Part shown: piece after piece, positions 4,381-30,317 of the stretch | How positions within the stretch are numbered: position 1 is the first letter of the stretch | Layout: every line of letters begins with the position of its first letter | From: Eledone cirrhosa | Taxonomy: Eukaryota | Length of the DNA stretch: 64,000 nt | Reading direction: 5' to 3' | Assembly: GCA_964016885.1 (NCBI GenBank) | Contig: OZ024759.1 | Location: 12,028,001 to 12,092,000, forward strand | Position numbers and translations under genes: made by a program | Notes under the pieces: model-generated | Database searches by the model: none | Seen by the model: only the letters and a program-made list of their open reading frames with translations | Told to the model about the DNA's origin: nothing

Positions 4381-4481
4381 GTTTCATTTCATTTCATTTC
4401 ATTTTTACGTCTGCTTTTTCCCTGCTTGCAAGGGTGGGACGGGAACTGATTCTGGCTTGATTTCTACAGCTGGATGCCCTT
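4381..4481 (-). mobile_element. SINE/RTE-type 3' tail fragment
   Basis: (CATTT)n tail plus gatttctacagctggatgccctt; near-duplicate of 4921-5021. Confidence 0.65.
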
Positions 4482-5209
4482 TGAAGTTTCTATATATATA
4501 AGGAGAGCTGGATGATCATCAACGAGGAAGAGAAGGGGTTCGAGTCAGATCCAGGAAACAGGGCCCTCAGCTATTTCCTCTTCCTATTCTCGGGCCCTGT
4601 TCCCTGGATCTGACTCGAACCCCTTCTCTTCCTCCCTGTGATCTCGTTGATGATCATCCAGCTCTCCTTACACCTAGACCTGTCAACCGCTCTCTCCACA
4701 CTTCTGATCTTCTTTATCAGAGCTGACGTGCTTCCTCTTCTTCTCTTTCCTCGGCACCAGGGTCTCACTTGCATTCGTGAAGTACCGGTACCTCCCCGTC
4801 ACACTCTCCTTAGTCCCTCCGATGTCTCTCTCCTCTGAGCACTGAACCTGTTCCTCACTTCTACTGTGAACCTCTCCTGTAGCTTATCATCTTCCTTGAA
4901 ACATATACATATGTCTGTATCATTTCATTTCATCATCATTTCATTTTACGTCCGCTTTTCCCTGCTTACAAGGGTGGGACAGGAACTGATTCTGGCTTGA
5001 TTTCTACAGCTGGATGCCCTTCCTAACACCAACCTCATTTACAGTGAGTGCTGGGTGCTTTTTTGCCGTGGCACCTCCACAACCACTTTACAGTGGAATG
5101 ATAGGGACCCCAGTCCCTATCATCTCATTTCTACAGCTGAGTAAACTGGAGCAATGTGAAATAAAGTGTCTTGCTCAAGGAAACAACACATCACCCGGTC
5201 TGAGGATTG
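4478..5209 (-). mobile_element. Composite repeat, copy 1: fold-back RTE-LINE fragment plus SINE
   Basis: Nearly identical to 20765-21496. The minus strand encodes FKEDDKLQERFTVEVRNRFSA and ESWMIINEITGRK, which resembles ESWKLINEITGRK of the LINE at 32463. 4499-4566 is an inverted copy of 4592-4670. Confidence 0.8.
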
Positions 5210-6142: not shown

Positions 6143-9100
6143 TGGGTGAAGCTGTGGTGTTGAACCTAGTCTACTTCTGGGGTGAAGCTGTGGTGTTGAA
6201 CCTAGTCTACTGGGGTGAAGCTGTGGTGTTGAACCTAGTCTACTTCTGGGGTGAAGCTGTGGTGTTGAACCATGTCTACTGGGGTGAAGCTGTGGTGTTG
6301 AACCTAGTCTACTGGGATGAAGCTGTGGTGTTGAACCTAGTCTACTGGGGTGAAGCTGTGGTGTTGAACCTAGTCTACTGGGGTGAAGCTGTGGTGTTGA
6401 ACCTAGTCTACTTCTGGGGTGAAGCTGTGGTGTTGAACCTAGTCTACTGGGATGAAGCTGTGGTGTTGAACCTAGTCTACTTCTGGGATGAAGCTGTGGT
6501 GTTGAACCTAGTCTACTGGGGTGACGCTGTGGTGTTGAACCTAGTCTACTGGGGTGAAGCTGTGGTGTTGAACCTAGTCTACTGGGATGAAGCTGTGGTG
6601 TTGAACCTAGTCTACTTCTGGGGTGAAGCTGTGGTGTTGAACCTAGTCTACTGGGGTGAAGCTGTGGTGTTGAACCTAGTCTACTTCTGGGGTGAAGCTG
6701 TGGTGTTGAACCTAGTCTACTGGGGTGAAGCTGTGGTGTTGAACCTAGTCTACTTCTTGGGTGAAGCTGTGGTGTTGAACCTAGTCTACTGGGGTGAAGC
6801 TGTGGTGTTGAACCTAGTCTACTGGGGTGAAGCTGTGGTGTTGAACCTAGTCTACTGGGGTGAAGCTGTGGTGTTGAACCTAGTCTACTGGGATGAAGCT
6901 GTGGTGTTGAACCTAGTCTACTTCTGGGGTGAAGCTGTGGTGTTGAACCTAGTCTACTGGGGTGAAGCTGTGGTGTTGAACCTAGTCTACTGGGGTGAAG
7001 CTGTGGTGTTGAATCTAGTCTACTGGGGTGAAGCTGTGGTGTTGAACCTAGTCTACTTCTGGGATGAAGCTGTGGTGTTGAACCTAGTCTACTGGGGTGA
7101 AGCTGTGGTGTTGAACCTAGTCTACTTCTGGGATGAAGCTGTGGTGTTGAACCTAGTCTACTGGGGTGAAGCTGTGGTGTTGAACCTAGTCTACTGGGGT
7201 GAAGCTGTGGTGTTGAACCTAGTCTACTGGGATGAAGCTGTGGTGTTGAACCTAGTCTACTGGGATGAAGCTGTGGTGTTGAACCTAGTCTACTGGGATG
7301 AAGCTGTGGTGTTGAACCTAGTCTACTGGGGTGAAGCTGTGGTGTTGAACCTAGTCTACTGGGATGAAGCTGTGGTGTTGAACCTAGTCTACTGGGGTGA
7401 AGCTGTGGTGTTGAACCTAGTCTACTGGGATGAAGCTGTGGTGTTGAACCTAGTCTACTTCTGGGGTGAAGCTGTGGTGTTGAACCTAGTCTACTGGGGT
7501 GAAGCTGTGGTGTTGAACCTAGTCTACTTCTGGGGTGAAGCTGTGGTGTTGAACCTAGTCTACTGGGGTGAAGCTGTGGTGTTGAACCTAGTCTACTGGG
7601 ATGAAGCTGTGGTGTTGAACCTAGTCTACTTCTGGGATGAAGCTGTGGTGTTGAACCTAGTCTCCTGGGGTGAAGCTGTGGTGTTGAACCTAGTCTACTG
7701 GGGTGAAGCTGTGGTGTTGAACCTAGTCTACTGGGATGAAGCTGTGGTGTTGAACCTAGTCTACTTCTGGGGTGAAGCTGTGGTGTTGAACCTAGTCTAC
7801 TGGGGTGAAGCTGTGGTGTTGAACCTAGTCTACTGGGGTGAAGCTGTGGTGTTGAATCTAGTCTACTGGGGTGAAGCTGTGGTGTTGAACCTAGTCTACT
7901 TCTGGGATGAAGCTGTGGTGTTGAACCTAGTCTACTGGGGTGAAGCTGTGGTGTTGAACCTAGTCTACTTCTGGGATGAAGCTGTGGTGTTGAACCTAGT
8001 CTACTGGGATGAAGCTGTGGTGTTGAACCTAGTCTACTGGGGTGAAGCTGTGGTGTTGAACCTAGTCTACTGGGATGAAGCTGTGGTGTTGAACCTAGTC
8101 TACTGGGGTGAAGCTGTGGTGTTGAACCTAGTCTACTGGGATGAAGCTGTGGTGTTGAACCTAGTCTACTTCTGGGGTGAAGCTGTGGTGTTGAACCTAG
8201 TCTACTGGGGTGAAGCTGTGGTGTTGAACCTAGTCTACTGGGGTGAAGCTGTGGTGTTGAACCTAGTCTACTGGGGTGAAGCTGTGGTGTTGAACCTAGT
8301 CTACTGGGGTGAAGCTGTGGTGTTGAACCTAGTCTACTTCTGGGGTGAAGCTGTGGTGTTGAACCTAGTCTACTGGGGTGAAGCTGTGGTGTTGAACCTA
8401 GTCTACTGGGGTGAAGCTGTGGTGTTGAACCTAGTCTACTGGGGTGAAGCTGTGGTGTTGAACCTAGTCTACTGGGATGAAGCTGTGGTGTTGAACCTAG
8501 TCTACTTCTGGGGTGAAGCTGTGGTGTTGAACCTAGTCTACTGGGGTGAAGCTGTGGTGTTGAACCTAGTCTACTGGGGTGAAGCTGTGGTGTTGAACCT
8601 AGTCTACTGGGGTGAAGCTGTGGTGTTGAACCTAGTCTACTGGGGTGAAGCTGTGGTGTTGAACCTAGTCTACTGGGGTGAAGCTGTGGTGTTGAACCTA
8701 GTCTACTGGGGTGAAGCTGTGGTGTTGAACCTAGTCTACTGGGGTGAAGCTGTGGTGTTGAACCTAGTCTACTGGGGTGAAGCTGTGGTGTTGAACCTAG
8801 TCTACTGGGATGAAGCTGTGGTGTTGAACCTAGTCTACTGGGGTGAAGCTGTGGTGTTGAACCTAGTCTACTGGGGTGAAGCTGTGGTGTTGAACCTAGT
8901 CTACTGGGATGAAGCTGTGGTGTTGAACCTAGTCTACTGGGATGAAGCTGTGGTGTTGAACCTAGTCTTCTGGGGTGAAGCTGTGGTGTTGAACCTAGTC
9001 TACTGGGATGAAGCTGTGGTGTTGAACCTAGTCTACTGGGATGAAGCTGTGGTGTTGAACCTAGTCTACTGGGATGAAGCTGTGGTGTTGAACCTAGTCT

Positions 9101-12100
9101 ACTTCTGGGATGAAGCTGTGGTGTTGAACCTAGTCTACTGGGATGAAGCTGTGGTGTTGAACCTAGTCTTCTGGGGTGAAGCTGTGGTGTTGAACCTAGT
9201 CTACTGGGATGAAGCTGTGGTGTTGAACCTAGTCTACTGGGATGAAGCTGTGGTGTTGAACCTAGTCTACTGGGATGAAGCTGTGGTGTTGAACCTAGTC
9301 TTCTGGGGTGAAGCTGTGGTGTTGAACCTAGTCTACTGGGGTGAAGCTGTGGTGTTGAACCTAGTCTACTGGGGTGAAGCTGTGGTGTTGAACCTAGTCT
9401 ACTGGGGTGAAGCTGTGGTGTTGAACCTAGTCTACTGGGGTGAAGCTGTGGTGTTGAACCTAGTCTACTGGGGTGAAGTTGTGGTGTTGAACCTAGTCTA
9501 CTGGGATGAAGCTGTGGTGTTGAACCTAGTCTACTTCTGGGATGAAGCTGTGGTGTTGAACCTAGTCTACTGGGGTGAAGCTGTGGTGTTGAACCTAGTC
9601 TACTGGGGTGAAGCTGTGGTGTTGAACCTAGTCTACTGGGGTGAAGCTGTGGTGTTGAACCTAGTCTACTGGGGTGAAGCTGTGGTGTTGAACCTAGTCT
9701 ACTGGGGTGAAGCTGTGGTGTTGAACCTAGTCTACTTCTGGGATGAAGCTGTGGTGTTGAACCTAGTCTACTGGGGTGAAGCTGTGGTGTTGAACCTAGT
9801 CTACTTCTGGGGTGAAGCTGTGGTGTTGAACCTAGTCTACTTCTGGGGTGAAGCTGTGGTGTTGAATCTAGTCTACTGGGGTGAAGCTGTGGTGTTGAAC
9901 CTAGTCTACTGGGGTGAAGCTGTGGTGTTGAACCTAGTCTACTGGGATGAAGCTGTGGTGTTGAACCTAGTCTACTGGGGTGAAGCTGTGGTGTTGAACC
10001 TAGTCTACTGGGGTGAAGCTGTGGTGTTGAACCTAGTCTACTGGGGTGAAGCTGTGGTGTTGAACCTAGTCTACTGGGGTGAAGCTGTGGTGTTGAACCT
10101 AGTCTACTGGGGTGAAGCTGTGGTGTTGAACCTAGTCTACTGGGATGAAGCTGTGGTGTTGAACCTAGTCTACTGGGGTGAAGCTGTGGTGTTGAACCTA
10201 GTCTACTGGGGTGAAGCTGTGGTGTTGAACCTAGTCTACTTCTGGGGTGAAGCTGTGGTGTTGAACCTAGTCTACTGGGGTGAAGCTGTGGTGTTGAACC
10301 TAGTCTACTGGGATGAAGCTGTGGTGTTGAACCTAGTCTACTGGGGTGAAGCTGTGGTGTTGAACCTAGTCTACTGGGGTGAAGCTGTGGTGTTGAACCT
10401 AGTCTACTTCTGGGGTGAAGCTGTGGTGTTGAACCTAGTCTACTGGGGTGAAGCTGTGGTGTTGAACCTAGTCTTCTGGGGTGAAGCTGTGGTGTTGAAC
10501 CTAGTCTACTGGGATGAAGCTGTGGTGTTGAACCTAGTCTACTGGGGTGAAGCTGTGGTGTTGAACCTAGTCTACTGGGGTGAAGCTGTGGTGTTGAACC
10601 TAGTCTACTGGGGTGAAGCTGTGGTGTTGAACCTAGTCTACTGGGGTGAAGCTGTGGTGTTGAACCTAGTCTACTGGGGTGAAGCTGTGGTGTTGAACCT
10701 AGTCTACTGGGGTGAAGCTGTGGTGTTGAACCTAGTCTACTGGGATGAAGCTGTGGTGTTGAACCTAGTCTACTGGGGTGAAGCTGTGGTGTTGAACCTA
10801 GTCTACTGGGGTGAAGCTGTGGTGTTGAACCTAGTCTACTGGGGTGAAGCTGTGGTGTTGAACCTAGTCTACTGGGGTGAAGCTGTGGTGTTGAACCTAG
10901 TCTACGGGGGTGAAGCTGTGGTGTTGAACCTAGTCTACTGGGGTGAAGCTGTGGTGTTGAACCTAGTCTACTGGGATGAAGCTGTGGTGTTGAACCTAGT
11001 CTACTTCTGGGGTGAAGCTGTGGTGTTGAACCTAGTCTACTGGGATGAAGCTGTGGTGTTGAACCTAGTCTACTGGGATGAAGCTGTGGTGTTGAACCTA
11101 GTCTACTGGGGTGAAGCTGTGGTGTTGAACCTAGTCTACTGGGGTGAAGCTGTGGTGTTGAACCTAGTCTACTGGGGTGAAGCTGTGGTGTTGAACCTAG
11201 TCTACTGGGGTGAAGCTGTGGTGTTGAACCTAGTCTACTGGGGTGAAGCTGTGGTGTTGAACCTAGTCTACTGGGGTGAAGCTGTGGTGTTGAACCTAGT
11301 CTACTGGGGTGAAGCTGTGGTGTTGAACCTAGTCTACTGGGGTGAAGCTGTGGTGTTGAACCTAGTCTACTGGGATGAAGCTGTGGTGTTGAACCTAGTC
11401 TACTGGGGTGAAGCTGTGGTGTTGAACCTAGTCTACTGGGGTGAAGCTGTGGTGTTGAACCTAGTCTACTGGGGTGAAGCTGTGGTGTTGAACCTAGTCT
11501 ACTGGGGTGAAGCTGTGGTGTTGAACCTAGTCTACTACTGGGATGAAGCTGTGGTGTTGAACCTAGTCTACTGGGATGAAGCTGTGGTGTTGAACCTAGT
11601 CTACTGGGGTGAAGCTGTGGTGTTGAACCTAGTCTACTGGGGTGAAGCTGTGGTGTTGAACCTAGTCTACTGGGGTGAAGCTGTGGTGTTGAACCTAGTC
11701 TACTTCTTGGGTGAAGCTGTGGTGTTGAACCTAGTCTACTGGGGTGAATCTGTGGTGTTGAACCTAGTCTACTGGGGTGAAGCTGTGGTGTTGAACCTAG
11801 TCTACTACTGGGATGAAGCTGTGGTGTTGAACCTAGTCTACTGGGATGAATCTGTGGTGTTGAACCTAGTCTACTGGGGTGAAGCTGTGGTGTTGAACCT
11901 AGTCTACTGGGGTGAAGCTGTGGTGTTGAACCTAGTCTACTGGGGTGAAGCTGTGGTGTTGAACCTAGTCTACTTCTTGGGTGAAGCTGTGGTGTTGAAC
12001 CTAGTCTACTGGGGTGAAGCTGTGGTGTTGAACCTAGTCTACTTCTGGGATGAAGCTGTGGTGTTGAACCTAGTCTACTGGGATGAAGCTGTGGTGTTGA

Positions 12101-13158
12101 ACCTAGTCTACTTCTGGGGTGAAGCTGTGGTGTTGAACCTAGTCTACTTCTGGGGTGAAGCTGTGGTGTTGAACCTAGTCTACTGGGGTGAAGCTGTGGT
12201 GTTGAACCTAGTCTACTGGGGTGAAGCTGTGGTGTTGAACCTAGTCTACTTCTGGGGTGAAGCTGTGGTGTTGAACCTAGTCTACTGGGCTGAAGCTGTG
12301 GTGTTGAACCTAGTCTACTTCTGGGGTGAAGCTGTGGTGTTGAACCTAGTCTACTGGGGTGAAGCTGTGGTGTTGAACCTAGTCTACTGGGGTGAAGCTG
12401 TGGTGTTGAACCTAGTCTACTTCTGGGGTGAAGCTGTGGTGTTGAACCTAGTCTACTGGGATGAAGCTGTGGTGTTGAACCTAGTCTACTTCTGGGATGA
12501 AGCTGTGGTGTTGAACCTAGTCTACTGGGATGAAGCTGTGGTGTTGAACCTAGTCTACTGGGATGAAGCTGTGGTGTTGAACCTAGTCTACTGGGGTGAA
12601 GCTGTGGTGTTGAACCTAGTCTACTGGGGTGAAGCTGTGGTGTTGAACCTAGTCTACTGGGGTGAAGCTGTGGTGTTGAACCTAGTCTACTTCTGGGGTG
12701 AAGCTGTGGTGTTGAACCTAGTCTACTGGGGTGAAGCTGTGGTGTTGAACCTAGTCTACTGGGGTGAAGCTGTGGTGTTGAACCTAGTCTACTTTTGGGA
12801 TGAAGCTGTGGTGTTGAACCTAGTCTACTGGGGTGAAGCTGTGGTGTTGAACCTAGTCTACTGGGGTGAAGCTGTGGTGTTGAACCTAATCTACTGGGAT
12901 GAAGCTGTGGTGTTGAACCTAGTCTACTGGGATGAAGCTGTGGTGTTGAACCTAGTCTACTGGGATGAAGCTGTGGTGTTGAATCTAGTCTACTGGGGTG
13001 AAGCTGTGGTGTTGAACCTAGTCTACTGGGATGAAGCTGTGGTGTTGAACCTAGTCTACTGGGATGAAGCTGTGGTGTTGAATCTAGTCTACTGGGGTGA
13101 AGCTGTGGTGTTGAACCTAGTCTACTGGGATGAAGCTGTGGTGTTGAATCTAGTCCAC
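6143..13158 (+). repeat. 33/36-bp minisatellite, about 210 units (7 kb)
   Basis: Unit tggggtgaagctgtggtgttgaacctagtctac with G/A and +TTC/+TAC variants; it produces the 2383-aa ORF. Confidence 0.98.
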
Positions 13159-13372
13159 CTCTGAAGAGAGACTTAAACTCAAAATGCTAAGAACTGAAAC
13201 TGTTAAGTCATTACCAGAGCCCTAACAACTCCATGAGGTCTTCTCATTCCCTGGAATGCTACGTCAATTATGGATCCTGGAAACATGAAAAATAAATTGA
13301 CCTCGGTGGGATTTGAACTCAGAAATGAAGGAACCAGAACAAACATCACAAGGTATTCTCTCCAGTCTCTAA

Positions 13373-13729
13373 CATTTCCATTAATTAACATTCCCAGTCT
13401 CTAACTTCCCTATTTATTAACATTCCAATTAATTAACATTCCCATTAACTAACATTCCCATTAATTAACATTTCCATTAATTAACATTCCCAGTCTCTAA
13501 ATTAACATTCCCAGTTTCTAACATTCCCATTAATTAACATTCCCAGTTTCTAACATTCCCATTAATTAACATTTCCAGTCTCTAACATTCCCATTAACTA
13601 ACATTCCCATTAATTAACATTCCCAGTCTCTAACATTTCCATTAATTAACATTCCCAGTCTCTAAATTAACATTCCCAGTTTCTAACATTCCCATTAATT
13701 AACATTCCCAGTTTCTAACATTCCCAGTC
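13373..13729. repeat. Degenerate 15-17-bp tandem repeat (taacattcccattaat / taacattcccagtctc)
   Basis: Seen directly; it grows out of the end of a minus-strand SINE remnant at about 13270-13375. Confidence 0.9.
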
Positions 13730-13949
13730 TCAGGGCGAAAGAAGCCCTTCATTAATGTAGCTGGACTGTCGTCCTTACGGAGGTAAGTGACTGTCTATTG
13801 AAAAAAATATATATAAACGAAATGAATGGAGGTAATTCGTTCGGAATGGATTTTCATAGGAAAATTGTTAGTGCGTTGGTCTCAAGACGATGTTTTTAAT
13901 GAATATAATTTCATAATTTAGAGATTTAAAAAAAAAGGATTCAGAGATC

Positions 13950-14175
13950 GAATCCCTCATCGTCACAATACCACCAATGCACTGATAATTTTCTTGTAAA
14001 AATATATCTAATCCGACTCCCGAATCACCTCCATTCGATTCGTTTATATTTTTTTTTAAACAAAGAATGTGAAAAGTACCCATAAGTATAAGTATTCTAT
14101 TCACTAGAATTGCGCCCTTCGAGGTGACCTGCGAGCTGCGTCTCGGACTCCCAGTCTGTGTGACTGACGTTCGAT
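13950..14175 (+). repeat. Dispersed direct repeat, diverged copy at 20530-20735
   Basis: Shared blocks in the same order: cacaaYaccaccaatgc, aagtaSccataagta, tagaattgcgSccttcgMggtgRc and ctgcgtctcggactYccagt. Confidence 0.75.
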
Positions 14176-15028
14176 TCGTGGTGGCGTGCGATTGTTAAGT
14201 GGACCTGGGACTGTCCAGACAGTCCCTTTTGTTGTCAACAGTGAGTCGAAAAAAATGAATACTTAGAATCAAGGGGAGATAATTCCCATTTTTTAAAGCA
14301 AAGTTAACTTCAAGGAGGTCTGGGACTGTCTGGACGACCCCCAATTACATCTAAGGATGTCCCATACGATAACTAGATCGACTTCCGTTTCTTTGAAAGA
14401 GAACCATTTTGGATATTACTTTCATGTGAGGAGGTATGTAATGTTTTCTTTGCTCTATACTAGGACTATCTAAGAAACTATACCTTCTCTCTATACACGT
14501 ACATTCTATTAGATATACACTTTATGTCAATAACACTCACATTTTGGATATTGTGTTCATGTGGCTTTCTGGCACCTAATATATTTCTATTTCCCTTCAT
14601 GATATCCTCGTATTTTGTAATACGATAAGTAGATTGATATAGCTTTAACTTTTAGCCTACAACCATTTATATTCTTTCTAAAACCTACAACCTTGAAGGT
14701 GACTTACATTCTTGGAAGACAGTTTGATTAGAACCTTGGATACTTCTTACTACATTCTTGACTGACTTAGATTCGAACCTTTGATACTTACTTATATATT
14801 CTTAGTTTCTTTCGTTAGAAACTTAGTTTCCCTCCAACAATATTATTTCTAGTTCCCTTCATGATATCCTCGTGTTTTGTTGTAAATTCGTTTTGGAGAC
14901 TTATTCCTGACCTGTTGGTTGCTATATTCTGGTTATTAATATTAACCAGAATCTTTTAAGATCTGTCGTCTTTGGTCAGGGTGAATATTACACCCGTCTC
15001 GTTTTGGCCATAAAACTTAGGTTTTATA

Positions 15029-16833
15029 CCCATTTTTTAAAAATAGATATCATGATCGTGTTAACTAGATCGATATCACTTTAACCGACGTAACATAGAA
15101 CCATTTACATTCTTAGTTTATTTCGTTAGTTACCTCCCTTGATGTAGGAAAAGGTTTTCTTGTTTCCTCTTTTTAAATGTATATATAATAAAAAACAAAC
15201 TTGGAAGAATTTATAAAGTTTAATATTCTTTTTATTGATAACATATGTAAATGTCTTTTATTTCTTTTTGCAGATGTCCAGCCTTCAAGGTCATATGCTG
15301 TGTTGCCGTAACAATACATATATACGAATCGTGCTCAGTTTATTTTGATAAAAATGAATGACAAAGACACTAAGAATGTTTAAACAGCCTCATCAAGGTT
15401 TCGACCGAAAATGGTTGTCCAATAAACAATGTAGACAGTATCACCAATGGTTCCAATCTAAGGAAAGAGAATAGAAAATATCAATAATGTGAAAAGGAAA
15501 GAAAATTAGAGAAAGAACCATCAAGGGTTCGAATGTAGCAGTCGTCTAAAATAGTAAGTAACATAAAGGGTAAAAGTAAGTATCAATAAAAGTCAACAAT
15601 GTAAAAAGTGTTATTAAGGGTTCGAATCCAACAGTCGTCAAAGAATGTAGTAACCATCAAGGGTTCTAAGTATCAAGAACCTTCAAGTATGTAAAGAAAG
15701 TATTGAAGGTTCGAATCCAACTGTCTTCCAAGAACCTTGAAGTATCGAAGGTTCGAATCTAAGTCAGTCAAGAATGTAGTAAGAAGTATCTAACTGTCTT
15801 CTTAGATACTTCTTACTACTTTCTTAGAACCCTTGAAGGTTATTTACATTCTTGGAAGACAGTAGGATTCGAACCTTAGATACTTCTTACTACATTCTTG
15901 ACTTACTTTGATTCGAACCTTTGATACTTTCTTTACATTCTTGATACTTAGAACCCTTGATGGTTACTACATTCTTGGAAGACAGTTAGATTCGAACCTT
16001 CAATACTTTCTTTACATATTTAAAGGTTCTTGATACTTGGAACCCACGATGGTTACTTACATTCTTGGAAGACAGTTAGATTCGAACCTTAGATACTTCT
16101 TACTACATTCTTGACTTACTTAGATTCGAACCTTTGATACTTCGAGGTTCTTGGAAGACAGTTGGATTCGAACCTTCAATACTTTCTTTACATACTTGAA
16201 GTTTCTTGATACTTAGAACCCTTGATGGTTACTACATTCTTTGACGACTGTTGGATTCGAAGCCTTAATGACACTTTTAACATTGTTGACTTTTATTGAT
16301 AGATACTTTTCATTCCCTTTCTGTTACTTACTACTTTTGGACGACTGTTACATTCGAACCCTTGGTGGTTCTTTCTCTAATATTTCTTTCCTTTTCACAT
16401 TATTGATATTTTCTATTCTTTCCTTAGATTGTAACCATTGGTGATACTGTCTACATTGTTTATTGGACAACTATTTTTGGTCGAAACCTTGATGAGGCTG
16501 TTTAAACATTCTTAGTGTCTTTGTCAAAATAAACTGAACACGATTCGTATATATGTATTGTTACGGCAACACAGCATATCACCTTGAAGGCTGGACATCT
16601 GTAAAAAAAAAATAAAAGACATTTACATACGTTATCAATAAAAAGAATATTAAACTTTATAAAATTCTTCCAAGTTTGTTTTTTATTATATATACATTTA
16701 AAAAGAGGAAACAAGAAAACCTTTTCCTACATCAAGGGAGGTAACTAACGAAAGAAACTAAGAATGTAAATGGTTCTGTTAAAGTGATATCGATCCAGTT
16801 AACACGGTCATGATATCTAAAAAAAAAAATGGG
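15029..16833. repeat. 1.8-kb imperfect palindrome (fold-back family member 1)
   Basis: 15029-15793 is the reverse complement of about 16089-16833. The local axis is near 15797, and extra GTTCGAATC sub-repeats lie at 15820-16090. Confidence 0.93.
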
Positions 16834-17499
16834 CCGATTGTCTTGAATCTCCAAAGTATGTGAAGAGGGGACATCCTTTGGGGAAAGTAACTTAATAAAT
16901 TCGATTGATTTATATTAAAATCGAATAAAGCGTTTATATATTGAAAATGTTTTCGTTTCTCAGTATATGAAGCCTTATACTTGAGTCTTTGGGGCATGCA
17001 ATCAAGATTGCCCCGGATTCTCTGGTCTGTCGCGAAAAGCTTATCCCCTAAAGTGACTGAGAGTACAAGACTCCCCCCCCCCCCGAACGTAAGTCCATCA
17101 CAGGGTTAACCCCCCACTTATTGCTGGTGCTCTTGAGTCATACGTAAAACTAAAACAATTGTAAATTCATTTCATTTTTCGATCACTTTCTTCCGCTGTA
17201 TACTAATCATTGGTTAACTGTCTATCGGTGTTTGTAAAGATCGATATCGACTAACTTGTGGGTTTATTTCGCCATCATTAAGTCCCAGATTCGATCACAC
17301 CCCATGTGAAACTGGGTAAACAGAAACTGTGTGTCATCTGTAATTGACAATGGCCAGTCTTATAATACTGAATTTCCCTGGGAATTACGCATGTAATTAT
17401 AGATTAACTAGTGCTGTAGCATGGCCAGGCATCTTAGAAGGTGCTGTAGCATGCCCAAGGATCTTAGAGGGTGCTGCAGCATGGTCAGTATAATTGAAA

Positions 17500-17645
17500 C
17501 ATGCGCACTAGATTTCTAAATCTCGCGCTTGCGCATTCAAAACAAGAAAAAAAATGGCCGTCAGCTTGTAGAATTTTACAAGCTTTACAAAAACTCTTGC
17601 TAAATGGTTTAACAATGGACAATTGCTGCTTTCCGAAAGGTAACG
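17500..17645 (+). promoter_or_regulatory. Possible promoter / first-exon-like segment
   Basis: CpG-containing catgcgca and cgcgcttgcgca (NRF1-like), aaaatggccg (YY1-like) and a possible donor site aag|gtaacg in otherwise AT-rich unique DNA. Motif-only evidence. Confidence 0.2.
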
Positions 17646-18214
17646 TAGATTTCTATATTATGTTGAGGTTTGTAAATCTTTCCCTCTTAGTCTCTTTCGT
17701 ATGATATACTATTTACACCTTCTAGTTCTCTTGTTTACGTATTCTAACTCATTCCCAATTAACAATCTAACGTGGTCGTTTCGATTGTTGCCTACATCTT
17801 GCGATCTTTCCGAGTTACACACAATAAGTCCAGCTGTTCACCATCTATGTTTTAAACCCTTTTTCTCCCATTTGACTTTGTCGATGGGGGAATCTTATCT
17901 TCCGTCTTGTAATGTCGTAAATTTAGTTCTATACACCTAAGTTTTGTTTTCGCCTTTAATAGTCCAAGAACAGTGTACGTCTGTTTTTCTGGTGATCATG
18001 GTTGAAGTATTGATCAGTGTTAATAGATCGATATCGATTAACTTTCCCCACGTGAATTCTCAATCATTAGGTGAGAGAATGACATCTTGGGCAAGGGTCA
18101 TCATAAACTTTAGTTGACCCATGAGGGAAATTTAGTAGACAGCATCTATTCTGGAAGCCTGTACCTGTAATTGAGTCAGTCTTGTCACACACCGTGTGGA
18201 ACTTCAGTATTTCT

Positions 18215-18505
18215 TCGCATAGTGGTTACAGTGTTGGACTTACGATCATAATGTCATAAGGTCGATTCTTGATCGTGTTGTGTTCTTGAGCAAAACACTT
18301 CATTTCACGTGGCTCCAGTATACTTAGGTGAAAATGAGTACCAGTAGTATCATGGGGTGTAACTCTGTGATAGACTGGCGTTCTGTCCAGGTGAGGTTCC
18401 TGTATTTTCAGCCGACTAACTGATTCGGATAAACACCGGTCTAATGAGGCTCCGGATTTGAGACAGACTTTAATCTTGCAATCGACTGGCGTCCTATCCA
18501 GGGGA
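18215..18505 (+). mobile_element. Decayed tRNA-headed SINE
   Basis: gcatagtggttacag A-box-like, ggtcgattct B-box-like and tgtgttcttgagcaaaacacttcatttcac, shared with the SINE at 4921-5268. Confidence 0.65.
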
Positions 18506-19239
18506 AGTCTCTTACCATATTCCTAATGAAATACACAGACCACGTGATCCAATTCATGCTGAAAATAAACAATAAAATTCAACATGTTTCTTTTTTATTC
18601 ACAGAAAATATGTCGAGTGTATTTCTTTAAAACTCTTCCTAGTTGTTAATATTTCAGTGTATTTAAATGCTTCTTTCAAGATTGAGATCAAAGACCTTAA
18701 ATTGTTGATTCAATTCTTCAACAGTGCTAAACATTTTCTGAAACTGTTGTAAATTAATTTTGTATTCTGGAGAGGTTTTCTCGGGTGTTTTAACTATTCC
18801 AGTTATTCAATCGCCACTCCCACACACATATGTTACGTAAGTCCGTAATTATGATTGTACCCTGAGATGATAGATATTGATACGATTGCAATATGCCAAT
18901 AAAGTTTATATATATGCTGCAATTGACTTCGATCCTGCTTATATATATATGAGCGGTCACCCCACCGAACTTGCCTCTAAATGGGACAGACTCGTCTAAT
19001 CCATTCTAGCGTGGAAGATAGACATTAAACGTTGATGATGATATATAGGCATAATTATGTCCTCAGGTTCATTCACCTTCGATGGACATAGCCTTGGTGT
19101 TGATGTCCGTGTCCTTTGTTCATTGGGAATATTTACCCTCAATCCCCTCTCTCCTTCTCCAAAGCCTCCCTCATCCTGCGAACTGCAGCCTTCTTCTCTC
19201 GTCCTGTCATTCCAATGATTGTGAGCATCCTCCATACTG

Positions 19240-19530
19240 ATTAAGCCGATGATTCCCTGCAGCCCACCTCGACTGGAAATAGCCATACCTACGAACCTTT
19301 CTACTGCACAACTTCTTACTGTCCAGCTTCATGTTTAATCTTCCACACGTTAGTACAGTCTATCAAATCCACTGGTCACCTTTGCCAGTCTGTTGCGGAT
19401 TTCCCTCTCAATCTTGGCATGTGATGTGAAGATGCTGCCCAGGCAGCTGATATGATGGACTGTTTAGTTCAGTCTCGCCAATGGTGATATGGGTGTAGGC
19501 TGGTGGAATACCTCCATCTTTAAGTTTACT
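19240..19530 (-). pseudogene. Highly decayed RTE-like LINE RT C-terminal fragment
   Basis: The minus strand reads CLGSIFTSHAKIEREIRNRLAK, resembling the YLGS...IdxEixxRlaKA segment of RTE ORFs. Confidence 0.55.
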
Positions 19531-19554
19531 TACAGTCTAGAGAGCCGGGCCTGC

Positions 19555-19990
19555 CTTTTAACGTGATATACTGTTACATCTAAGGTTGTGTTTGTCCTTT
19601 AAACGTCCTTTATTTACAGTATATTGTGGTAGCTCTCCCTCCATAAGAACCACAGTTAAACGTAATATAAGTTTGTGTCTGTCTTGTAACGTCCCTGTTA
19701 TACAGTATACTGTGGTAGCTGTCCCCCCACACGGCAGCTGTAAGGTTGTGTTTGTCTTCCAGCATATTGTGGTAGCTGTCCCTCCTTACCGTCCACAGTT
19801 ACATCTAAGGATGGGTCTGTCTTTTAACGTCACTGATATACAGTATTCTGTCCTTCCACGCGGCCTACAGTTGCATCTAACGTCCCCTTTATAGTCTATT
19901 ATGGTAGCTGTACCTCCATACGGCCTACAATTACATGTAAGGATGTGTCCCTGATATACAGTCCCTCCTTACCGTTTACATCTAAGGAAG
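19555..19990. repeat. Degenerate tandem repeat, about 60-85-bp units
   Basis: Recurring tattgtggtagctgtccctcc and cagttacatctaagg...tgtc...taacgtc. Confidence 0.75.
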
Positions 19991-20764
19991 CTTATAAAAG
20001 GTTGACCTGTATTTTAACATCACAAGAACTGGGGTCATGTGTCCTTAAACCTGGAATACATCAAGGTACGTATTAGTCACATTTGTATCGATTGTAATTC
20101 AGGTATTAATATATTTTTCATTTGTAAATTGTTGATGCATTGCTGGTGATATGTGTGTGTTGTTACGGGGTGCACTTATGGTTGTCAATGTCAGTCTATA
20201 CTTCCTTTGGTGACTGTACAGGCAGTAGATATTTCAGTGGAAGTGTCTTTCCCACCTCAGTCTCTTTCCATCTCGAAGGCTCAATGTCCTGTAATATTTT
20301 GTGGCCAACGCATGTACGCCAAAAGAGCGGTTAAAAGACATGTCTAACCTATATAATCTTCTGTGGCTATCGCTTGACTGTAAACAAAGATTTAGAGACA
20401 TGTCTAATTTGCATCTCCATCATAAGGTCTTGCAGTCATCAAAGGATCCTCAATTGTAGAACACGGTCACCATCGAACTTCGATAAACCTCCACAATTAA
20501 ACCCCCTAAACACTCCGTTGGCAGACATTGAAAACCCCATCTTCACAACACCACCAATGCGTTAATAATTGTCTTATGAAAAGAATATTTGTTCCCTTTG
20601 CATATACTATTTTTTTTTTATCAAAATATTTCCCAAGTAGCCATAAGTACCATTAATTTACTCAGTAGAATTGCGGCCTTCGCGGTGGCATGTGAACTGC
20701 GTCTCGGACTTCCAGTATAGGTGGCTGGCGTTTCTTTTCGAAATGTTATTAATATGTAAATGAA

Positions 20765-21529
20765 CCTTTGAAGTTTCTATATATATAAGGAGAGCTGGAT
20801 GATCATCAACGAGGAAGAGAAAGGGTTCGAGTCAGATCCAGGGAACAGGGCCCTCAGCTATTTCCTCTTCATATTCTCGGGCCCTGTTCCCTGGATCTGA
20901 CTCGAACCCCCTCTCTTCCTCCCTGTGATCTCGTTGATGATCATCCAGCTCTCCTTACACCTAGACCTGTCAACCGCTCTCTCCACACTTCTGATCTTCT
21001 CTATCAGAGCTGACGATGCTTCCTCTTCTTCTCTTTCCTCGGCACCAGGGTCTCACTTGCATTGGTGAAGTACCGGTACCTCCCCGTCACACTCTCCTTA
21101 GTCCCTCCAATCTCTCTCTCCTCTGAGCACTGAACCTGTTCCTCACTTCTACTGTGAACCTCTCCTGTAGCTTATCATCTTCCTTGAAACATACATATGT
21201 CTGTATCATTTCATTTCATCATCATTTCATTTTACGTCCGCTTTTTACCTGCTTGCAAGGGTGGGACGGGAACTGATTCTGGCTTGATTTCTACAGCTGG
21301 ATGCCCTTCCTAACACCAACCTCATTTACAGTGAGTGCTGGGTGCTTTTTTGCCGTGGCACCTCCACGACCACTTTACAGTGGAATGATAGGGATCCCAG
21401 TCCCTATAATCTCATTTCTACAGCTGAGTAAACTGGAGCAATGTGAAATAAAGTGTCTTGCTCAAGGAAACAACACATCACTCGGTCTGAGAATTGGGTG
21501 ATGTGTTGTTTCCTTGAGCAAGACACTTT
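20765..21529 (-). mobile_element. Composite repeat, copy 2: fold-back RTE fragment plus SINE, ending in a second hairpin
   Basis: Near-identical to 4478-5209; 21450-21483 is inverted at 21497-21529. Confidence 0.85.
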
Positions 21530-21939
21530 GTATATGTATATATACACATATATAATTATTCATAAACTTATGTATATATATACACACACCCACACATATG
21601 TGTACATATTTTTATCTCCATAATAATTGTTCTGTATATATGTACAAAATACTTGTAGATTCTAAATTAATTTAAATATCGAAACGGAATGTGAGATAAC
21701 ACATGAAATATATTTTGAGACGTGTTACCTCCTTTTCCGTTTCTATATTTTTTTTTAAATGAATAAAATTTTACCTATAAGTATACTAATTTTGTTATAC
21801 TTTGGGAGGGTCATGTTGTCAATAAGAAACACACGCACCAGTTGATTTCACTCCAATTTATTATAAATTAAATTTATAAATTTAGGATTTTATAAATTTC
21901 TGGTTGGCTGGTTGGTTGGTTCCACAACCGGACGGTTGT

Positions 21940-22500
21940 TCATATATTGTCAAAGTTCTTTCGCCACAAATTCTGTGACCTTTTCAGTGATTGGGGATTC
22001 TTTTCTTTGTTTTTGTGCCTCTCCTTTGTTCTGTCCTACGCCATCTTGTTTTTGTGTGTGTTGTGTACTTAGTTTGCGCATGTGTTACATCCGGGTGTCT
22101 GTGTGTGTTTTTATTTGTTTATTTAAATGCTACTGGTTGGTTGTTTGTTCTATGTGTGTGTGTGTGTTTTCATTTTGTCCTTAACTGTAAGTTGTGATGT
22201 TGCTATTCCATTCATGTTTTCTATTTAATTTTGGTTGGAGTTCATTTATGTTTATTGCTTCTGTGATTTGACTAAACATTGCGTCTTTTCTGTGTGTAGA
22301 TTCTATTTTTATTTCTATGTTCTCTAATTTGCCCTTATGTTCTATTTTAGCATGTTGGTGGAGTATTGATGATTCTTTTTTATCTTGAAGCTCTCGCCAG
22401 TGTTCATTTAACCGTTCTCCTATACTACGAGCTGTCTCACCTATGTACACTATATTCTTATCTTTACATTGTCCTTCAGTACATCTTATGATATATCTAC
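21940..22500 (-). pseudogene. Penelope-like element 3' remnant: GIY-YIG endonuclease C-terminus plus degenerate hammerhead-like motif
   Basis: The minus strand reads YIIRCTEGQCKDKNIVYIGETARSIGERLNEH...ILHQH...ITEAININELQPKLNRKHE, the CxxxxC..YIGET..R..EH / EA..I....P.LN pattern of PLE GIY-YIG domains. Confidence 0.85.
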
Positions 22501-22519
22501 ATTTCTAGAAATGTAGTAT

Positions 22520-23045
22520 ATAGCATAAGATTACTAAAACTCGAGAACCACCCAACCGAGTTTTATTCAAACTTTACACATGTAGTACTTATGGTCCCGT
22601 GAGTGGTGTTTTGAGCAAAATAAATTTCAAATTTTCAATGCATTAGGCGATTTAGCGATCTCTCTCTATAATTCTTAGTCTTTCTCTTTTTAGATAGATA
22701 CATACATATAACGTCACGCCCTTATAATATCTGTCTGTATGCCTAACTGTCTGCAAATAGTCTTCCTGTTTTCCTTCGATTGCAACGTTTTTCGAAATAT
22801 TTACTTCTGCGTTCACAGATTGATTTTTTTAGTTTCAGAAGATCCTGTTAAGGGTAAAAGCAGCGATTCTTTGCTTAAAAATTAATCTGTTATTTTAATA
22901 TATATAATTATATATTCGTGTACAGATATTTTTGCATATACAATAGCAAAATATAAACAAACATATTTATTTCGCGAGGCTCGATAAGGATAAATATATA
23001 AGAACCCTAGAGCAAATCCCGAACAACGCCGGGCCATTCTGCTAG
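22520..23045 (+). mobile_element. Non-autonomous Helitron-like element, 3' end at 23045
   Basis: Hairpin cccgaacaacgccggg (23018-23033), 8 nt, then CTAG (23042-23045) followed by T, the canonical Helitron 3' terminus. An internal CTGT-rich stretch is present; the 5' end is not defined. Confidence 0.6.
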
Positions 23046-24057
23046 TATCTAATAAAAAACAAACTTGGAAGAATTCTATAAAGTTTAATATTCTTTTTAT
23101 TGATAACGTATGTAAATGACTTTTATTACTTTTAGATATCCAGCCTTCAAGCCGTAAAGAATGGCGAACTCTCTGTTAAGAAAGCTTACATATATACGAA
23201 TCGTGTTCAGTTTATTTTGACAAAAATGAATAAAGTTTACATATTATATACGAATTGTGTTCAGTTTATTTTGACAAAGACACTAAGAATGTTTAAACAG
23301 CCTCATCAAGGTTTCAAATCCAACAGTCGCTCCAAAAATAGACAGTATCACCAATGGTTACAATCTAAGGAAAGAGAATAGAAAATATCAATAATGTGAA
23401 AAGGAAAGAAATATCAGAGAAAGAACCATCAAGGGTTCGAATGTAACAGTCGTCCAAAAGTAGTAAGTAACAGAAAGAGAATGAAAAGTATCAATAAAAA
23501 TCAATAATGTAAAAAGTATCATTAAGGGTTCGAATCCAATAGTCGTCCAAGAATGTAACCATCTAAGTATCAAGAACCTTCAAGTATGTAAAGAAAGTAT
23601 TGAAGGTTCGAATCCAACTGTCTTCCAAGAACCTTGAAGTATCAAAGGTTCGAATCTAAGTGAGTCAAGAATGTAGTAAGAAGTAGCTAAGGTTCTAATC
23701 TAACTGTCTTCCAAGAATGTAAGTAACTTTCAAGGGTTCTAAGAAGACAGTTGGAATAGAACCTTAGTTACTTCTTACTACATTCGAACTTAACTCGATT
23801 TTTGCTCTAAAATTTTAATGTATTTATCTCCCTTTTTTTAAACTCTTCTTTTTTTTTAAGTGACTTCCGGTTCTTTGGAAGAGAACCATTTTGGATATTA
23901 CTTTCATGTAAAGAGGTATGTAATGTTTTCTTTGCTACTAGGACTAATAGATACACTTTATGTCAATAACGGATATAGTTTTCTATACACATACATTCTC
24001 TTAGATACACACTTTTCAGAAAACACGTTTCATATAGAATCTTTCTCGACATTTTAT

Positions 24058-24087
24058 AGTGTTTACCTCTGATCAGAGGTAAACACT
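24058..24087. repeat. Perfect 30-bp palindrome agtgtttacctctga|tcagaggtaaacact
   Basis: Seen directly in the left-arm spacer. Confidence 0.9.
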
Positions 24088-24231
24088 GTATTTAAGGTCG
24101 AGTGATTAGCGGCCTTTAGACTCACCTGATCAATGAAACTTTTGATAATACTAGAAATAAAACCTTTTTGTGCAGCCGACCATGTTATTCTTCAATCTTA
24201 CACACACATACACACACACATATATATATAT

Positions 24232-24368
24232 AAGGGTAAAGACCCTCACGATTGACCATGGGATTTTCATCTAAAAAGTTCCCCTCCGAGACCGGGCAAG
24301 GTTGTTTGTGGAAGACCAGCAGTCTTCCCTCCCCACGCCACTGATGTTGTCCAACTCATTTCTACAGA
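24232..24368 (-). mobile_element. SINE body fragment inserted in the left arm only
   Basis: gaccatgggatt...ccgggcaaggttgtttgtggaagaccagcagtc...ctcatttctacag; the last motif is shared with the SINE at 4921-5268. No mirror copy on the right. Confidence 0.45.
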
Positions 24369-25016
24369 CTGATCTAGAGAAACGTGAGACAACGCTAGTA
24401 AATCTTTATTTTATATTGAAGAGTTTCACTTAAACATTTTCCGTTTATTTCCCTCCATAATGTCAGCAATAATTAACCAATAGTTTTGTTTAGCTGCTGC
24501 CCCACCTCCACGTTGTGTTGTATTTCCAATGTAATGTCACCTCACACATTTCTCGGTCATATCAAATAGAATTTAGCGTATTTCTATATTATTTAAGTTG
24601 GCAAATAAGATAACATCTCTGTCTGACGACCGATCCAGACGTTTACTATTGTCTATGATCCAGAAACCTTTGGTAATGGAGTAGTTTGTGTTGTTCGCTT
24701 TCTAATATATATATAAACTCGTCGCTATTTATATACACACACAGACATATATTTATATATATGTATATATAGTTATGTAATAAACAACATAAAGCAATTA
24801 TTCCATTTACCAGTGGTTTCTTAAAAGCAAAAAATGTTGCTTTCAATCACCAGAATGAAAAAATCCTGGTGTCTTTATTGATATTGGATTCTAAAAACAA
24901 AAATGCAATCTATAACTGTTAAGCTCTGTTACCTACATAGAGCACTCTTTTTACCTGGACTTGTCCGACGGAATTACTTCATTTATATGTATATATATAC
25001 ACACACAGAGACAGAC

Positions 25017-25047
<31 letters not shown>

Positions 25048-26111
25048 GAGACAGACATATATATATATATATATACACACACACAGACATATATATAAAC
25101 ACACATATATATATATACACATATATATATATATACACACACACACGCACACTTATGTATATATATATATACAGTTGGTAAATAATATACTTGTTCTTCT
25201 CTTCATCATATCCTCGTGTTGGAGGACTTTCTCTTTGTCAACATGTCCCAGTCAGTCGTTGGAGTGTCATACTAGATGTGCAGTCGTGCTTTACAATCAT
25301 GAGTTCGATTCTCGTAGCAAGCTTCTGAAGGACTTGTGCTTGATTCTGATAGTTACTTTACCATGGCAGAATCTCCTTTGGCCCTGCTAGATTCTGGTTA
25401 TTAATATTAACCAGAATCTTTTGAGAACTGTTGTCTTTGGTCAGAGTGAATATTTCACCCGTCTACGTAACACACACACACTTAATATGCATTTTTAGTT
25501 TAATATTATTTTTATTGATAATGTATGTAAATGACTTTCATTTCTTTTTACAGATGTCCAGCCATCAAGGCCATATGCTGTGTTGTTTGCCGTAACAAGT
25601 GGGAATGTCGTACTTTCTTTTAATAAATATACGAGAAAACTAATCGCTATGCACACACACACACACACACACATCTTTTAATAAAGAAAGTTTACATCAT
25701 ATATACGAATTGTACTCAGTTTATTTTGAGAAAAATGAATAAAGAAAGTTTACATATTATATACGAATTGTGTTCACTTAATGTTGACAAAAATGAATAA
25801 AGAAATCAAGAGTCTAGAAGAAACCGAGTTCGCCGTGATGTAAAGAACGTAAGTGTTTATGAAGTTTCTAAATAAAGAAACTAAGAGTAAGATAAAGTTT
25901 CTTGTAAGAAACTGAGAATGAAGAAGTTTCTAAATAAAGAAACTAAGAGGTAGATAAAGTTTCTTGAAAGAAACTGAGATTTATGAAGTTTCTAAATAAA
26001 GAAACTAAGAATGTTTTTGAAATTATCGAAAAAAAAATCTATGAAATAAGACCACCCTCTTTTTAATTTTTTTTTATTAAAGGGAGGTAACTCTGTAATA
26101 TTTTGAAACGA

Positions 26112-26505
26112 ATTACCTCCCTTTGAAACACCTTCGTCACCGTCGTTACCACCGTCGGCACCTTCGTAACCGTCGTCACCATTACCGCCGCCACCTGGTG
26201 GCGGAGGAAAAGATACCGACGACGACGGGGGTGCACCGTCGTCTTCGTCGGTACTTTTACCTCCGCCACCAGGTGGCGGAGGTAAAGACACCGACGAAGA
26301 CGAAGGTGCACCGTCGTCTTCGTCGGTGTCTTTACCGCCGCCACCTGGTGGCGGAGGTAAAAGTACCGACGAAGACGACGGTGCACCCCCGTCGTCGTCG
26401 GTATCTTTTCCTCCGCCACCAGGTGGCGGCGGTAATGGTGACGACGGTTACGAAGGTGCCGACGGTGGTAACGACGGTGACGAAGGTGTTTCAAAGGGAG
26501 GTAAT
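26112..26505. repeat. GC-rich palindrome core: 75-bp period made of alternating inverted 37.5-bp half-units
   Basis: Axes at 26196, 26271, 26346 and 26421 (ccgccaccWggtggcgg) and at 26233.5, 26308.5 and 26383.5 (GTGCAC-centred). Confidence 0.95.
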
Positions 26506-27528
26506 TCGTTTCAAAATATTACAGAGTTACCTCCCTTTAATAAAAAAAAATTAAAAAGAGGGGGTCTTATTTCATAGATTTTTTTTTCGATAATTTCAAA
26601 AACATTCTTAGTTTCTTTATTTAGAAACTTCATAAATCTCAGTTTCTTTCAAGAAACTTTATCTACCTCTTAGTTTCTTTATTTAGAAACTTCTTCATTC
26701 TCAGTTTCTTACAAGAAACTTTATCTTACTCTTAGTTTCTTTATTTAGAAACTTCATATACACTTACGTTCTTTACATCACGGCGAACTCAGTTTCTTGT
26801 AGACTCTTGATTTCTTTATTCATTTTTGTCAACATAAAGTGAACACAATTCGTATATAATATGTAAACTTTCTTTATTCATTTTTCTCAAAATAAACTGA
26901 ATATAATTCGTATATATGATGTAAACTTTCTTTATTAAAAGATGCGTGTGTGTGTGTGTGTGTGTGTATAGCGATTAGTTTTCTCGTATATTTATTAAAA
27001 GAAAGTACGACATTCCCACTTGTTACGGCAAACAACACAGCATATGGCCTTGATGGCTGGACATCTGTAAAAAGAAATGAGAGTCATTTACATACATTAT
27101 CAATAAAAATAATATTAAACTAAAAATGCATATTAAGTGTGTGTGTGTTACGTAGACGGGTGAAATATTCACTCTGACCAAAGACGACAGTTCTCAAAAG
27201 ATTCTGGTTAATATTAATAACCAGAATCTAGCAGGGCCAAAGGAGATTCTGCCATGGTAAAGTAACTATCAGAATCAAGCACAAGTCCTCCAGAAGCTTG
27301 CTACGAGAATCGAACTCATGATTGTAAAGCATGACTGCACATCTAGTATGACACTCCAACGACTGACTGGGACATGTTGACAAAGAGAAAGTCCTCCAAC
27401 ACGAGGATATGATGAAGAGAAGAAGAAGTATATTATTTACCAACTGTATATATATATATATATATATATATGTATGAGTGTGTGTGAATATATATATGTC
27501 TGTGTGTGTGTGTGTACATGTGTGTGTG

Positions 27529-27575
<47 letters not shown>

Positions 27576-27824
27576 ATGTATATATATATATATATATATA
27601 TAGCGATGAGTTTTCTCGTATATAATATATCTATAAATGTCTGTGTGTGTATATATATAGCGATGAGTTTTCTCGTATATAATATATCTATAAATGTCTG
27701 TGTGTATATATATAGCGATGAGTTTTCTCGTATATATGTCTGTGTGTGTGTATATATATTATATACATATATGTCGGGGGGGGGGGGGGGTATAGCGATG
27801 AGTTTTCTCGTATGTATATATATA

Positions 27825-27894
27825 ACCCATGCTAGTCCGTCTAACCCATGCTAGCATGGAAGAACAGACGTAAAACGATGATGATGATGATGAT
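27825..27894 (+). mobile_element. Short RTE-type 3' end with (GAT)n tail, right arm only
   Basis: ccgtctaacccatgctagcatggaagaacagacgtaaaa(cgatgat)n matches the reverse complement of 44347-44403 and the 3' end at 54935-54980. Confidence 0.75.
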
Positions 27895-29900: not shown

Positions 29901-30317
29901 CTAGCAGAATGGCCCGGCGTTGCTCGGGATTTTCTCTAGGGTTCTTATATATTTATCCTTATCGAGCCTCGCGAAATAAATATGTTTGTTTATATTTTGC
30001 TATTGTATATGCAAAAATATCTGTACACGAATATATAATTATATATATTAAAATAACAGATTAATGTTTAAGCAAAGAATCGCTGCTTTCACCCTTAACG
30101 GGATCTTCTGAAACTAAAAAAAATCAATCTGTGAACGCAGATGTAAATATTTCGAAAAACGTTAAAACCGAAGGAAAACGGGAAGACTATATGCAGACAG
30201 TCAGGCATTCAGACAGATATTATAAAGGCGCAACGTTATATCTATGTATCTATCTAAAAAGAGAAAGACTAAGAAATATAAAGAGAGATCGCTAAATCGC
30301 CTAATGCATTGAAAATT
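29901..30317 (-). mobile_element. Mirror copy of the Helitron-like element, 3' CTAG at 29901-29904
   Basis: a-ctag-cagaatgg-cccggcgttgctcggg; reverse complement of 22630-23045; truncated where the CR1-like RT fragment begins. Confidence 0.6.

Follow-up and report, generated by a model that had tools for sequence, protein, structure and literature searches.

A palindrome of Eledone cirrhosa and its neighbour: one probably inherited fold-back junction in a local modular repeat family

Did the small palindrome in this stretch of Eledone cirrhosa DNA (contig OZ024759.1) arise by a fold-back of its own, or did it inherit its turn together with the larger palindrome that lies downstream? The window, which is the whole stretch of 64,000 nucleotides that was analysed, is repeat-rich, with microsatellites and long minisatellite arrays, with fragments of LINE reverse transcriptases and with a remnant of a Tc1/mariner-type DDE transposase, whose named relatives are scattered invertebrates (120 listed of 139). 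Three blocks of ~3.5 kb with 97-98% identity occupy 41750-53178; every block includes LINE pieces, a transposase end and a 42-bp minisatellite, and the three indicate a recent tandem duplication or uncollapsed haplotypes. At 6144-13155 a 33-bp tandem array of ~209 copies leaves one frame open over 2383 codons, probably as a property of the unit and not as a gene, and a 730-bp repeat with 97% identity is present at 20765-21496 and 4478-5209, with an internal hairpin at 20786-20957. The family studied here consists of the modules Y-W-Z-X0-X and a minisatellite and is confined, in the 64-kb window, to 14.4-16.8 and 23.0-29.9 kb.

Self-comparison aligned 15029-15793 with 16833-16089 at 91.8% identity (772 columns, 1099 bits), whereas none of 30 shuffles of 15029-16833 gave an inverted score above 34.6 bits; the palindrome that an earlier note had reported at 15029-16833 was thereby borne out. 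Its arms enclose an asymmetric spacer of 295 bp and carry a degenerate minisatellite with a period of ~90 bp. Over 738 columns 29 substitutions separate the two arms, along with 9 indels, the longest of 13 nt. Per fifth of the arm 7, 5, 3, 10 and 4 substitutions were counted, and this even spread (p=0.26) is the pattern expected of a single copying event along the whole arm. Outside 15029 and 16833 no symmetry was found (best local score 28, equalled in 5 of 200 shuffles), and an inverted 11-mer common to 14353 and 16878 is without flanking duplication. The left arm runs on into Z-W-Y; the right arm halts at 16833. A short word of the arm start, 15108-15129, recurs inverted in the same arm at 15363-15381 and is also present, tandemly repeated as a unit of 31 bp, in the large palindrome's inner arms (25856-26016), hinting at a still older turn within each arm. 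Upstream of both palindromes, in the same orientation, lie two segments of 230 bp with 70% identity (13942-14171 and 20522-20732), which may be an old local duplication or a separate dispersed repeat.

Table 1 Coordinates of the palindromes, their modules and associated features (positions in the window)
Feature	Position	Strand	Remarks
Module Y	14365-14523	+	Copies at 23858-24015 (+) and 28650-28775 (-)
Module W, copy 1	14570-14620	+	Copy 2 at 14832-14880; relatives at 25183-25220 and 27398-27437
Degenerate X0 copy	14621-14830	+	Split by an insert of ~110-130 bp
Module Z	14920-14999	+	27-bp hairpin at 14926-14952; copies at 25385-25464 (+) and 27154-27233 (-)
Small palindrome, left arm	15029-15793	+	X0 15029-15181, X 15182-15509, outer part of minisatellite array 15510-15793
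Small palindrome, turn	15776-15835		Putatively inherited fold-back junction with a private 22-nt insertion and a 13-nt deletion
Small palindrome, asymmetric spacer	15794-16088	-	Old 31-nt loop and inner array units without a left-arm partner
Small palindrome, right arm	16089-16833	-	At its end neither target-site duplication nor further symmetry
Helitron-like insert	22659-23045	+	Replaces X0 in both outer arms; mirror within 29901-30317
Large palindrome, left outer arm	23046-23795	+	X, array, junction ~23738-23751, ~45 bp of reversed array
Large palindrome, inner partial X (left)	25497-25802	+	Sequence match
Large palindrome, inner partial X (right)	26814-27121	-	Sequence match
Large palindrome, right outer arm	28899-29900	-	X, array with 76-bp triplication, junction 29041, ~150 bp of reversed array

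The small palindrome is preceded by Y, a first W, a decayed copy of X0 that harbours an array insert, a second W and, finally, Z. Y matches the large palindrome at 80% (14380-14523 with 23862-24015) and 87% (14376-14452 with 28725-28650), Z (14920-14999) at 92.5% (25385-25464) and 93.8% (27233-27154), and X (15217-15314) at 88% (25497-25598) and 87% (27121-27020). All 4 of the 4 module matches that the earlier note had listed between the two loci were recovered, and for each of them the large palindrome contains a mirrored counterpart in its right half. Z and X are linked at both loci, and this linkage passes through the left end of the small palindrome. The insert in the X0 copy (14691-14803) matches the array just past the turn (15831-15942) at 90%, from which we infer a templated insertion copied from the array. 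Module X has six copies (15217+, 16656-, 23082+, 25497+, 27121-, 29864-); their orientation is + - + + - - and does not alternate as had been stated before, and the inner two are partial, with only ~145 bp of X in common with the other four, and are not full arms. Module order differs as well: past the turn the large arms continue with Y-W-Z-X in the direction of the arm, and the small palindrome has these modules opposite. Separate hairpins at 13803-14057, 21674-21750, 26078-26124 and 26493-26540 have in common with X0, at the arm start, a word that includes GGAGGTAA. Positions 13828, 26497 and 26120 carry the same 14-mer, and between 21710-21736 and 26098-26124 there is a weak match (E ~0.01). 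These hairpins may be older relatives or termini of the palindrome repeat family.

The small arm matches the large outer arms, as had been claimed, at 79.5% (15182-15897/23046-23785) and 81.1% (15182-15793/29900-29254). In an alignment of the four arms (15182-15793 and its equivalents, 671 columns) the informative columns were divided 35:1:0 between small pair versus large outer pair, left with left, and the third way, and the tree supported sisters within palindromes with 100/100. Many of the 35 grouping columns fall in three block replacements; with these blocks masked (15285-15316, 15400-15430, 15645-15660) and gapped columns dropped, 501 columns were left, which still gave 8:1:0 (binomial p=0.001) and divergences of 3.2% in the small pair, 2.8% in the large pair and 4.0-5.2% between pairs, a small margin. 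The sole across-palindrome column, 15264, adjoins a T run, and three indels in the alignment (11, 6 and 11 nt) show the same within-palindrome grouping. A six-copy tree over 153 columns gave 100/98 for the inner pair and weaker values of 87/89 for the outer pair and did not resolve the small pair. The arm tree proposed as a check in the earlier note thus returned sisters within palindromes, and the grouping across palindromes that it had associated with a deleted duplicate was not seen. The small palindrome is not the large one copied and shortened by deletion, since its arms are sisters and its modules stand in another order and orientation. A nested hierarchy had also been described, and inversion is indeed nested at several scales.

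Sister arms are no proof of an independent origin, and the turn itself bears on this question. The junction 14-mer occurs three times in 64 kb (15793+, 29041+, 23751-), compared with 12 occurrences of the ordinary array context, and the order of array words around the turn is identical in all three junction copies. Both large outer arms have a 10-bp stem and a 31-nt loop where the array reverses, and the statement that the turn-around sequence is also found inside both of them was confirmed by the 14-mer. The presence of the same junction exactly three times argues for one ancestral turn that was inherited, with no separate fold-backs at that site, and hence against the view that the second palindrome is independent. 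Taken as a whole, the interpretation of the earlier note is partly supported: the hierarchy and the sister arms stand, the independent fold-back and the alternation do not.

Private changes are superimposed on the common junction. In the small palindrome a 22-nt insertion consists of an inverted copy of adjacent bases and a 7-nt duplication, a 13-nt deletion lies between short direct repeats, and both changes together create a perfect tip hairpin with an 18-bp stem at 15776-15819. The reversed piece of 150 bp in the right large arm matches inner array units that are kept only in the spacer of the small palindrome; unlike this piece, the small left arm follows outer array units. It would follow that one fold-back is older than the split of the three copies and that the small left arm was later re-copied or trimmed; this order of events, with the fold-back first and the re-copying after, rests on the comparison of shared with private changes.

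The array is a plausible substrate for fold-back. A stretch of array in single orientation contains 11 short inverted repeats versus 1.2±1.5 expected (0/200 shuffles as high), and two more stretches contain 10 versus 2.0±1.8 (0/200) and 9 versus 3.5±2.2 (5/200); in module X they are not enriched (127/200 shuffles as high). Microhomology at the proposed priming site, read from the sequence, is weak, with ~5/7 bases.

The layers of the large palindrome have diverged to different degrees. Between its halves the Helitron-like insert has a substitution divergence of 4.6%, X plus array one of 2.2%, Y one of 14%, the segment 24456-24715 one of 1.2% and the inner arms, which are 98.8% identical, likewise one of 1.2%; the outer arms differ by 13 transitions and 2 transversions. 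The ends of the Helitron-like insert comprise a 16-nt hairpin (23018-23033), a 3' CTAG followed by T and a candidate A|TC 5' end, features used as given in the available part of PMC4067079. Divergence of Y is significantly unlike that of every other layer (Y versus outer arm, p=3e-7), and its excess is not significant for the small versus the left large copy alone (p=0.10). In a 77-bp Y core the three copies, S in the small palindrome and BL and BR on the left and right of the large one, are star-like (S=BL 6, BL=BR 4 and S=BR 3 columns), and Y therefore does not group within palindromes. This pattern suggests that an older inverted pair underwent arm-to-arm conversion in patches. At its GC-rich centre, 26158-26459, the large palindrome has seven nested symmetry axes with a spacing of 37.5 bp, at which identity climbs inward (26/37, 31/37, 33/37, 148/150) with T, A, T and A as unpaired loop bases; this fits stepwise hairpin extension. 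The hairpin word of the centre presumably resembles a CTCF site. In the mirrored segment 24456-24715/27898-28192 a pattern scan detected a hammerhead-like core at 24623 (+) and 27999 (-), which has no Rfam match and whose minimum-energy fold falls short of the full ribozyme shape.

Coding sequence, structured RNA and foreign origin were searched for in addition. None of 75 stop-to-stop frames reached the Pfam cutoff; these had been taken from 157 listed frames at 13700-32100, of which those in microsatellites, in the LINE region, at 18.5-20.1 kb and at 20.6-21.8 kb were omitted, together with several that mirrored or overlapped others. A helix-turn-helix-like phrase noticed by eye at 23136-23378 was not supported, and a Pro/Gly-rich frame at 26170-26574 had no Pfam match. 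The Rfam search of 13000-32500 gave 65 matches up to E=5, all below the gathering score and nearly all of them generic miRNA hairpins. A tRNA-derived repeat was rejected, with 0 tRNAs and the A-box pattern at 0 of 7 B-box-like sites (the familiar consensus patterns of both boxes were used). Plasmids and phages gave no match, a 30-nt array word had 0 exact matches in bacterial and archaeal genomes, and no description of the repeat family was found in the open literature, preprint supplements aside.

In sum, the small palindrome is best read as genuine non-coding DNA of a local modular repeat family, and one inherited fold-back with later re-copying within each palindrome is the most likely mechanism, to which we give a fairly good chance of being correct. 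The 3' end of an ancestor would have folded back over the 31-nt loop and primed synthesis on its own strand, in a substrate that is rich in inverted repeats, and so produced the turn. The unit carrying this turn would then have been duplicated to give three descendants, the small palindrome and the two large outer arms, whose shared descent is seen in the junction and whose order is the presumed part. Afterwards one arm would have been re-copied from the other within each palindrome. Either the hairpin already present was extended anew, or the arms underwent long conversion or template switching from one to the other, two routes that would leave indistinguishable traces here; the small palindrome would represent one whole-arm event, the large one patches of different age. 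Additional local template switches may account for the asymmetric spacer, for the insert at 14691 and for the perfect hairpin at the tip. Because the right arm ends at 16833 while the left continues, the model requires an extra loss on the template side. The palindromes most likely have no host function and are a by-product of replication and repair. The model is built on a single window of 64 kb, and a dispersed mobile family would alter the reading. An undescribed non-autonomous animal mobile element might use hairpin priming in the style of a rolling hairpin, with a heritable junction, one arm regenerated per move and the large centre as a flip-flop hairpin end, which we regard as quite improbable.

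Several other explanations were weighed. Palindromes are a classic product of chimeras, and the likeness of the inner large arms would suit fold-back chimeric reads or amplification chimeras that were collapsed into palindromes during assembly or library preparation; such an artefact is nevertheless extremely unlikely, since the small arms carry the 29 arm-specific substitutions and 9 indels given above, transitions outnumber transversions 13:2 between the outer large arms, and one junction is common to three diverged copies, each with private later changes. Nor is there much chance that two direct tandem arm copies existed of which one was flipped by recombination between the inverted array pieces 14704-14789 and 15740-15793. 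Aligned in inverted orientation, these pieces reach 96% identity and have a base specific to the left arm in common, and if the flip is undone, the array words fall into an order resembling the one in the large arms, but this also turns the simple tandem repeats of W and X0 into inverted pairs, and the piece at 14691 lies inside an X0 copy whose flanking halves are in natural order and would be separated by a flip. More serious, though still unlikely, is a decayed non-autonomous foldback-type DNA transposon, with the small palindrome as one copy and the large one as a relative that became nested or rearranged. As in Tetris and Galileo, the arms are long and have a unique outer part, the inner tandem repeats are unequal in number and the middle is non-coding, and Galileo repeats are described, in the available part of PMC3573991, to extend and convert through recombination. 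Against this, the small palindrome has no target-site duplication even with ends shifted by ±15 bp, apart from A-runs inside the arm, and the large one has none save an internal palindromic 8-mer and an A-rich 6-mer. A transposase trace is absent from the 75 frames, and the left end sits in the middle of the module chain, with Z and X linked at both loci, so that the arm ends are not element ends.

A non-autonomous Penelope-like or Helentron (HINE) insertion, whose transposition left partial tandems and an adjacent inverted copy, appears rather unlikely. Penelope-like insertions with partial tandems and an adjacent inverted truncated copy are described in the available text of PMC8557442, and partial tandems with inverted copies in such insertions also in that of bioRxiv 10.64898/2026.07.22.740005; the left half of the large palindrome can be read as a partial tandem (X-array, then Y-W-Z-X), and the module order is compatible with partial tandem plus inverted copy, with undefined ends. 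A GIY-YIG remnant lies nearby at 22184-22504 (-), where the frame scores 25.3 bits versus a Pfam cutoff of 22.6, and is related to proteins with reverse transcriptase (RT) plus GIY-YIG; 2 of 6 scanned relatives have RT together with a GIY-YIG at the C terminus. But all 150 of the 150 listed relatives match only 22.2-22.5 kb of the window and never the modules, from which it follows that the GIY-YIG remnant lies beside the modules but did not give rise to them, and within the palindrome unit no coding remnant of RT or GIY-YIG was found. A hammerhead core is absent from 14376-16833, and no hammerhead family is among the 65 weak Rfam matches; one Penelope-like clade lacks the hammerhead, according to the portion of PMC8557442 at hand. 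As to Helentrons, HINEs have central tandem arrays between subterminal inverted repeats (available part of PMC7492417), and of the 8 occurrences of a recurrent 11-nt inverted motif in the window, 7 fall in the two palindromes. According to the available part of PMC4067079, the subterminal inverted repeats of a Helentron HINE measure 11-15 bp, keep a distance of 2-4 nt to the 5' end and of 38-60 nt to the 3' end and are accompanied by a 3' hairpin; the motif here lies ~100 bp inside both arm ends and not at HINE positions, and HINE/DINE-1 subterminal repeats with a 3' hairpin were not found at the expected positions in the arms. Four related motif words are absent from the supplements of PMC4067079, and three from the PMC7492417 file with the terminal-repeat table, in whose array sequences chance occurrences were seen.

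Regarding the neighbourhood, 21825-22560 (-) is a 3' remnant of a Penelope-like element that contains the GIY-YIG frame, a degenerate hammerhead-like motif is visible by eye at ~21960-21990 and is not called by Rfam, and a search for a longer protein for the GIY-YIG fragment found none. A broken frame at 31200-31900 (-) has motifs that we take to resemble a Penelope-like reverse transcriptase; two pieces of it gave no Pfam match, and it is unmatched by the GIY-YIG relatives. That the large palindrome splits one Penelope-like element was not supported, the GIY-YIG relatives missing the RT-like remnant at 31.2-31.9 kb.

If one inherited fold-back followed by re-copying is the true course of events, the locus is a datable record of a fold-back junction that was kept in the germ line and duplicated and whose arms were homogenised separately in two palindromes, and arm-to-arm copying operates on non-coding palindromes of 1-2 kb without a gene to protect. 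This would be of use for research on palindrome stability and satellite birth and cause little surprise there; a unit that proved to be dispersed with a fixed junction would represent a hairpin-primed mobile element of a new type and be far more important.

Among known systems, foldback transposons such as Tetris and Galileo are in practice defined by target-site duplications and have long modular arms with tandem repeats (available parts of PMC4079207 and PMC3573991). The locus shares with them long modular inverted arms, unequal internal tandem repeats and the lack of coding capacity, but differs in having no target-site duplication, defined ends, dispersal seen within the window or transposase; it resembles a foldback transposon yet lacks two defining features, a target-site duplication of 7-10 bp and arm ends as element ends, and is not placed in this group. 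With Penelope-like elements and HINEs, as far as they are covered by the available parts of PMC8557442, PMC7492417 and PMC4067079, it has in common the central tandem arrays and a module order that may be read as a partial tandem with an adjacent inverted copy, but here there is neither a hammerhead nor a coding remnant in the modules nor a subterminal repeat with 3' hairpin where one would be expected. Short inverted repeats are homogenised by template switching (available part of PMC8604942), and the perfect 18-bp tip hairpin that would have come from an imperfect ancestor by a local inverted copy is alike, except that here an insertion with a 7-nt duplication hit an older junction in non-coding DNA. 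In the sex-chromosome palindromes of PMC8327919, again from the part available, arm-to-arm conversion keeps arms closer within than between lineages; likewise, divergence here is lower within a palindrome than between copies and structural change lies near the centre, whereas the arms are shorter than 2 kb, non-coding and 96-99% (not >99%) identical and contain no gene that would need protection. In yeast and mammalian cells large palindromes arise through fold-back priming at short inverted repeats, according to the available part of the review PMC7999016, a process that is matched here by a short-loop turn in inverted-repeat-rich sequence, an asymmetric centre and a long mirrored arm; the locus differs in being germ-line, fixed and old, in the re-use of one junction in three copies and two palindromes, and in a priming homology of ~5/7 bases over a longer loop. 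The features of a fold-back palindrome under concerted evolution are present, namely a short-loop junction in inverted-repeat-rich sequence and arms that are closer to each other than to the paralogues sharing the junction, and on the best reading the locus behaves as such a palindrome, shaped by known DNA-repair processes and not by a new type of element.
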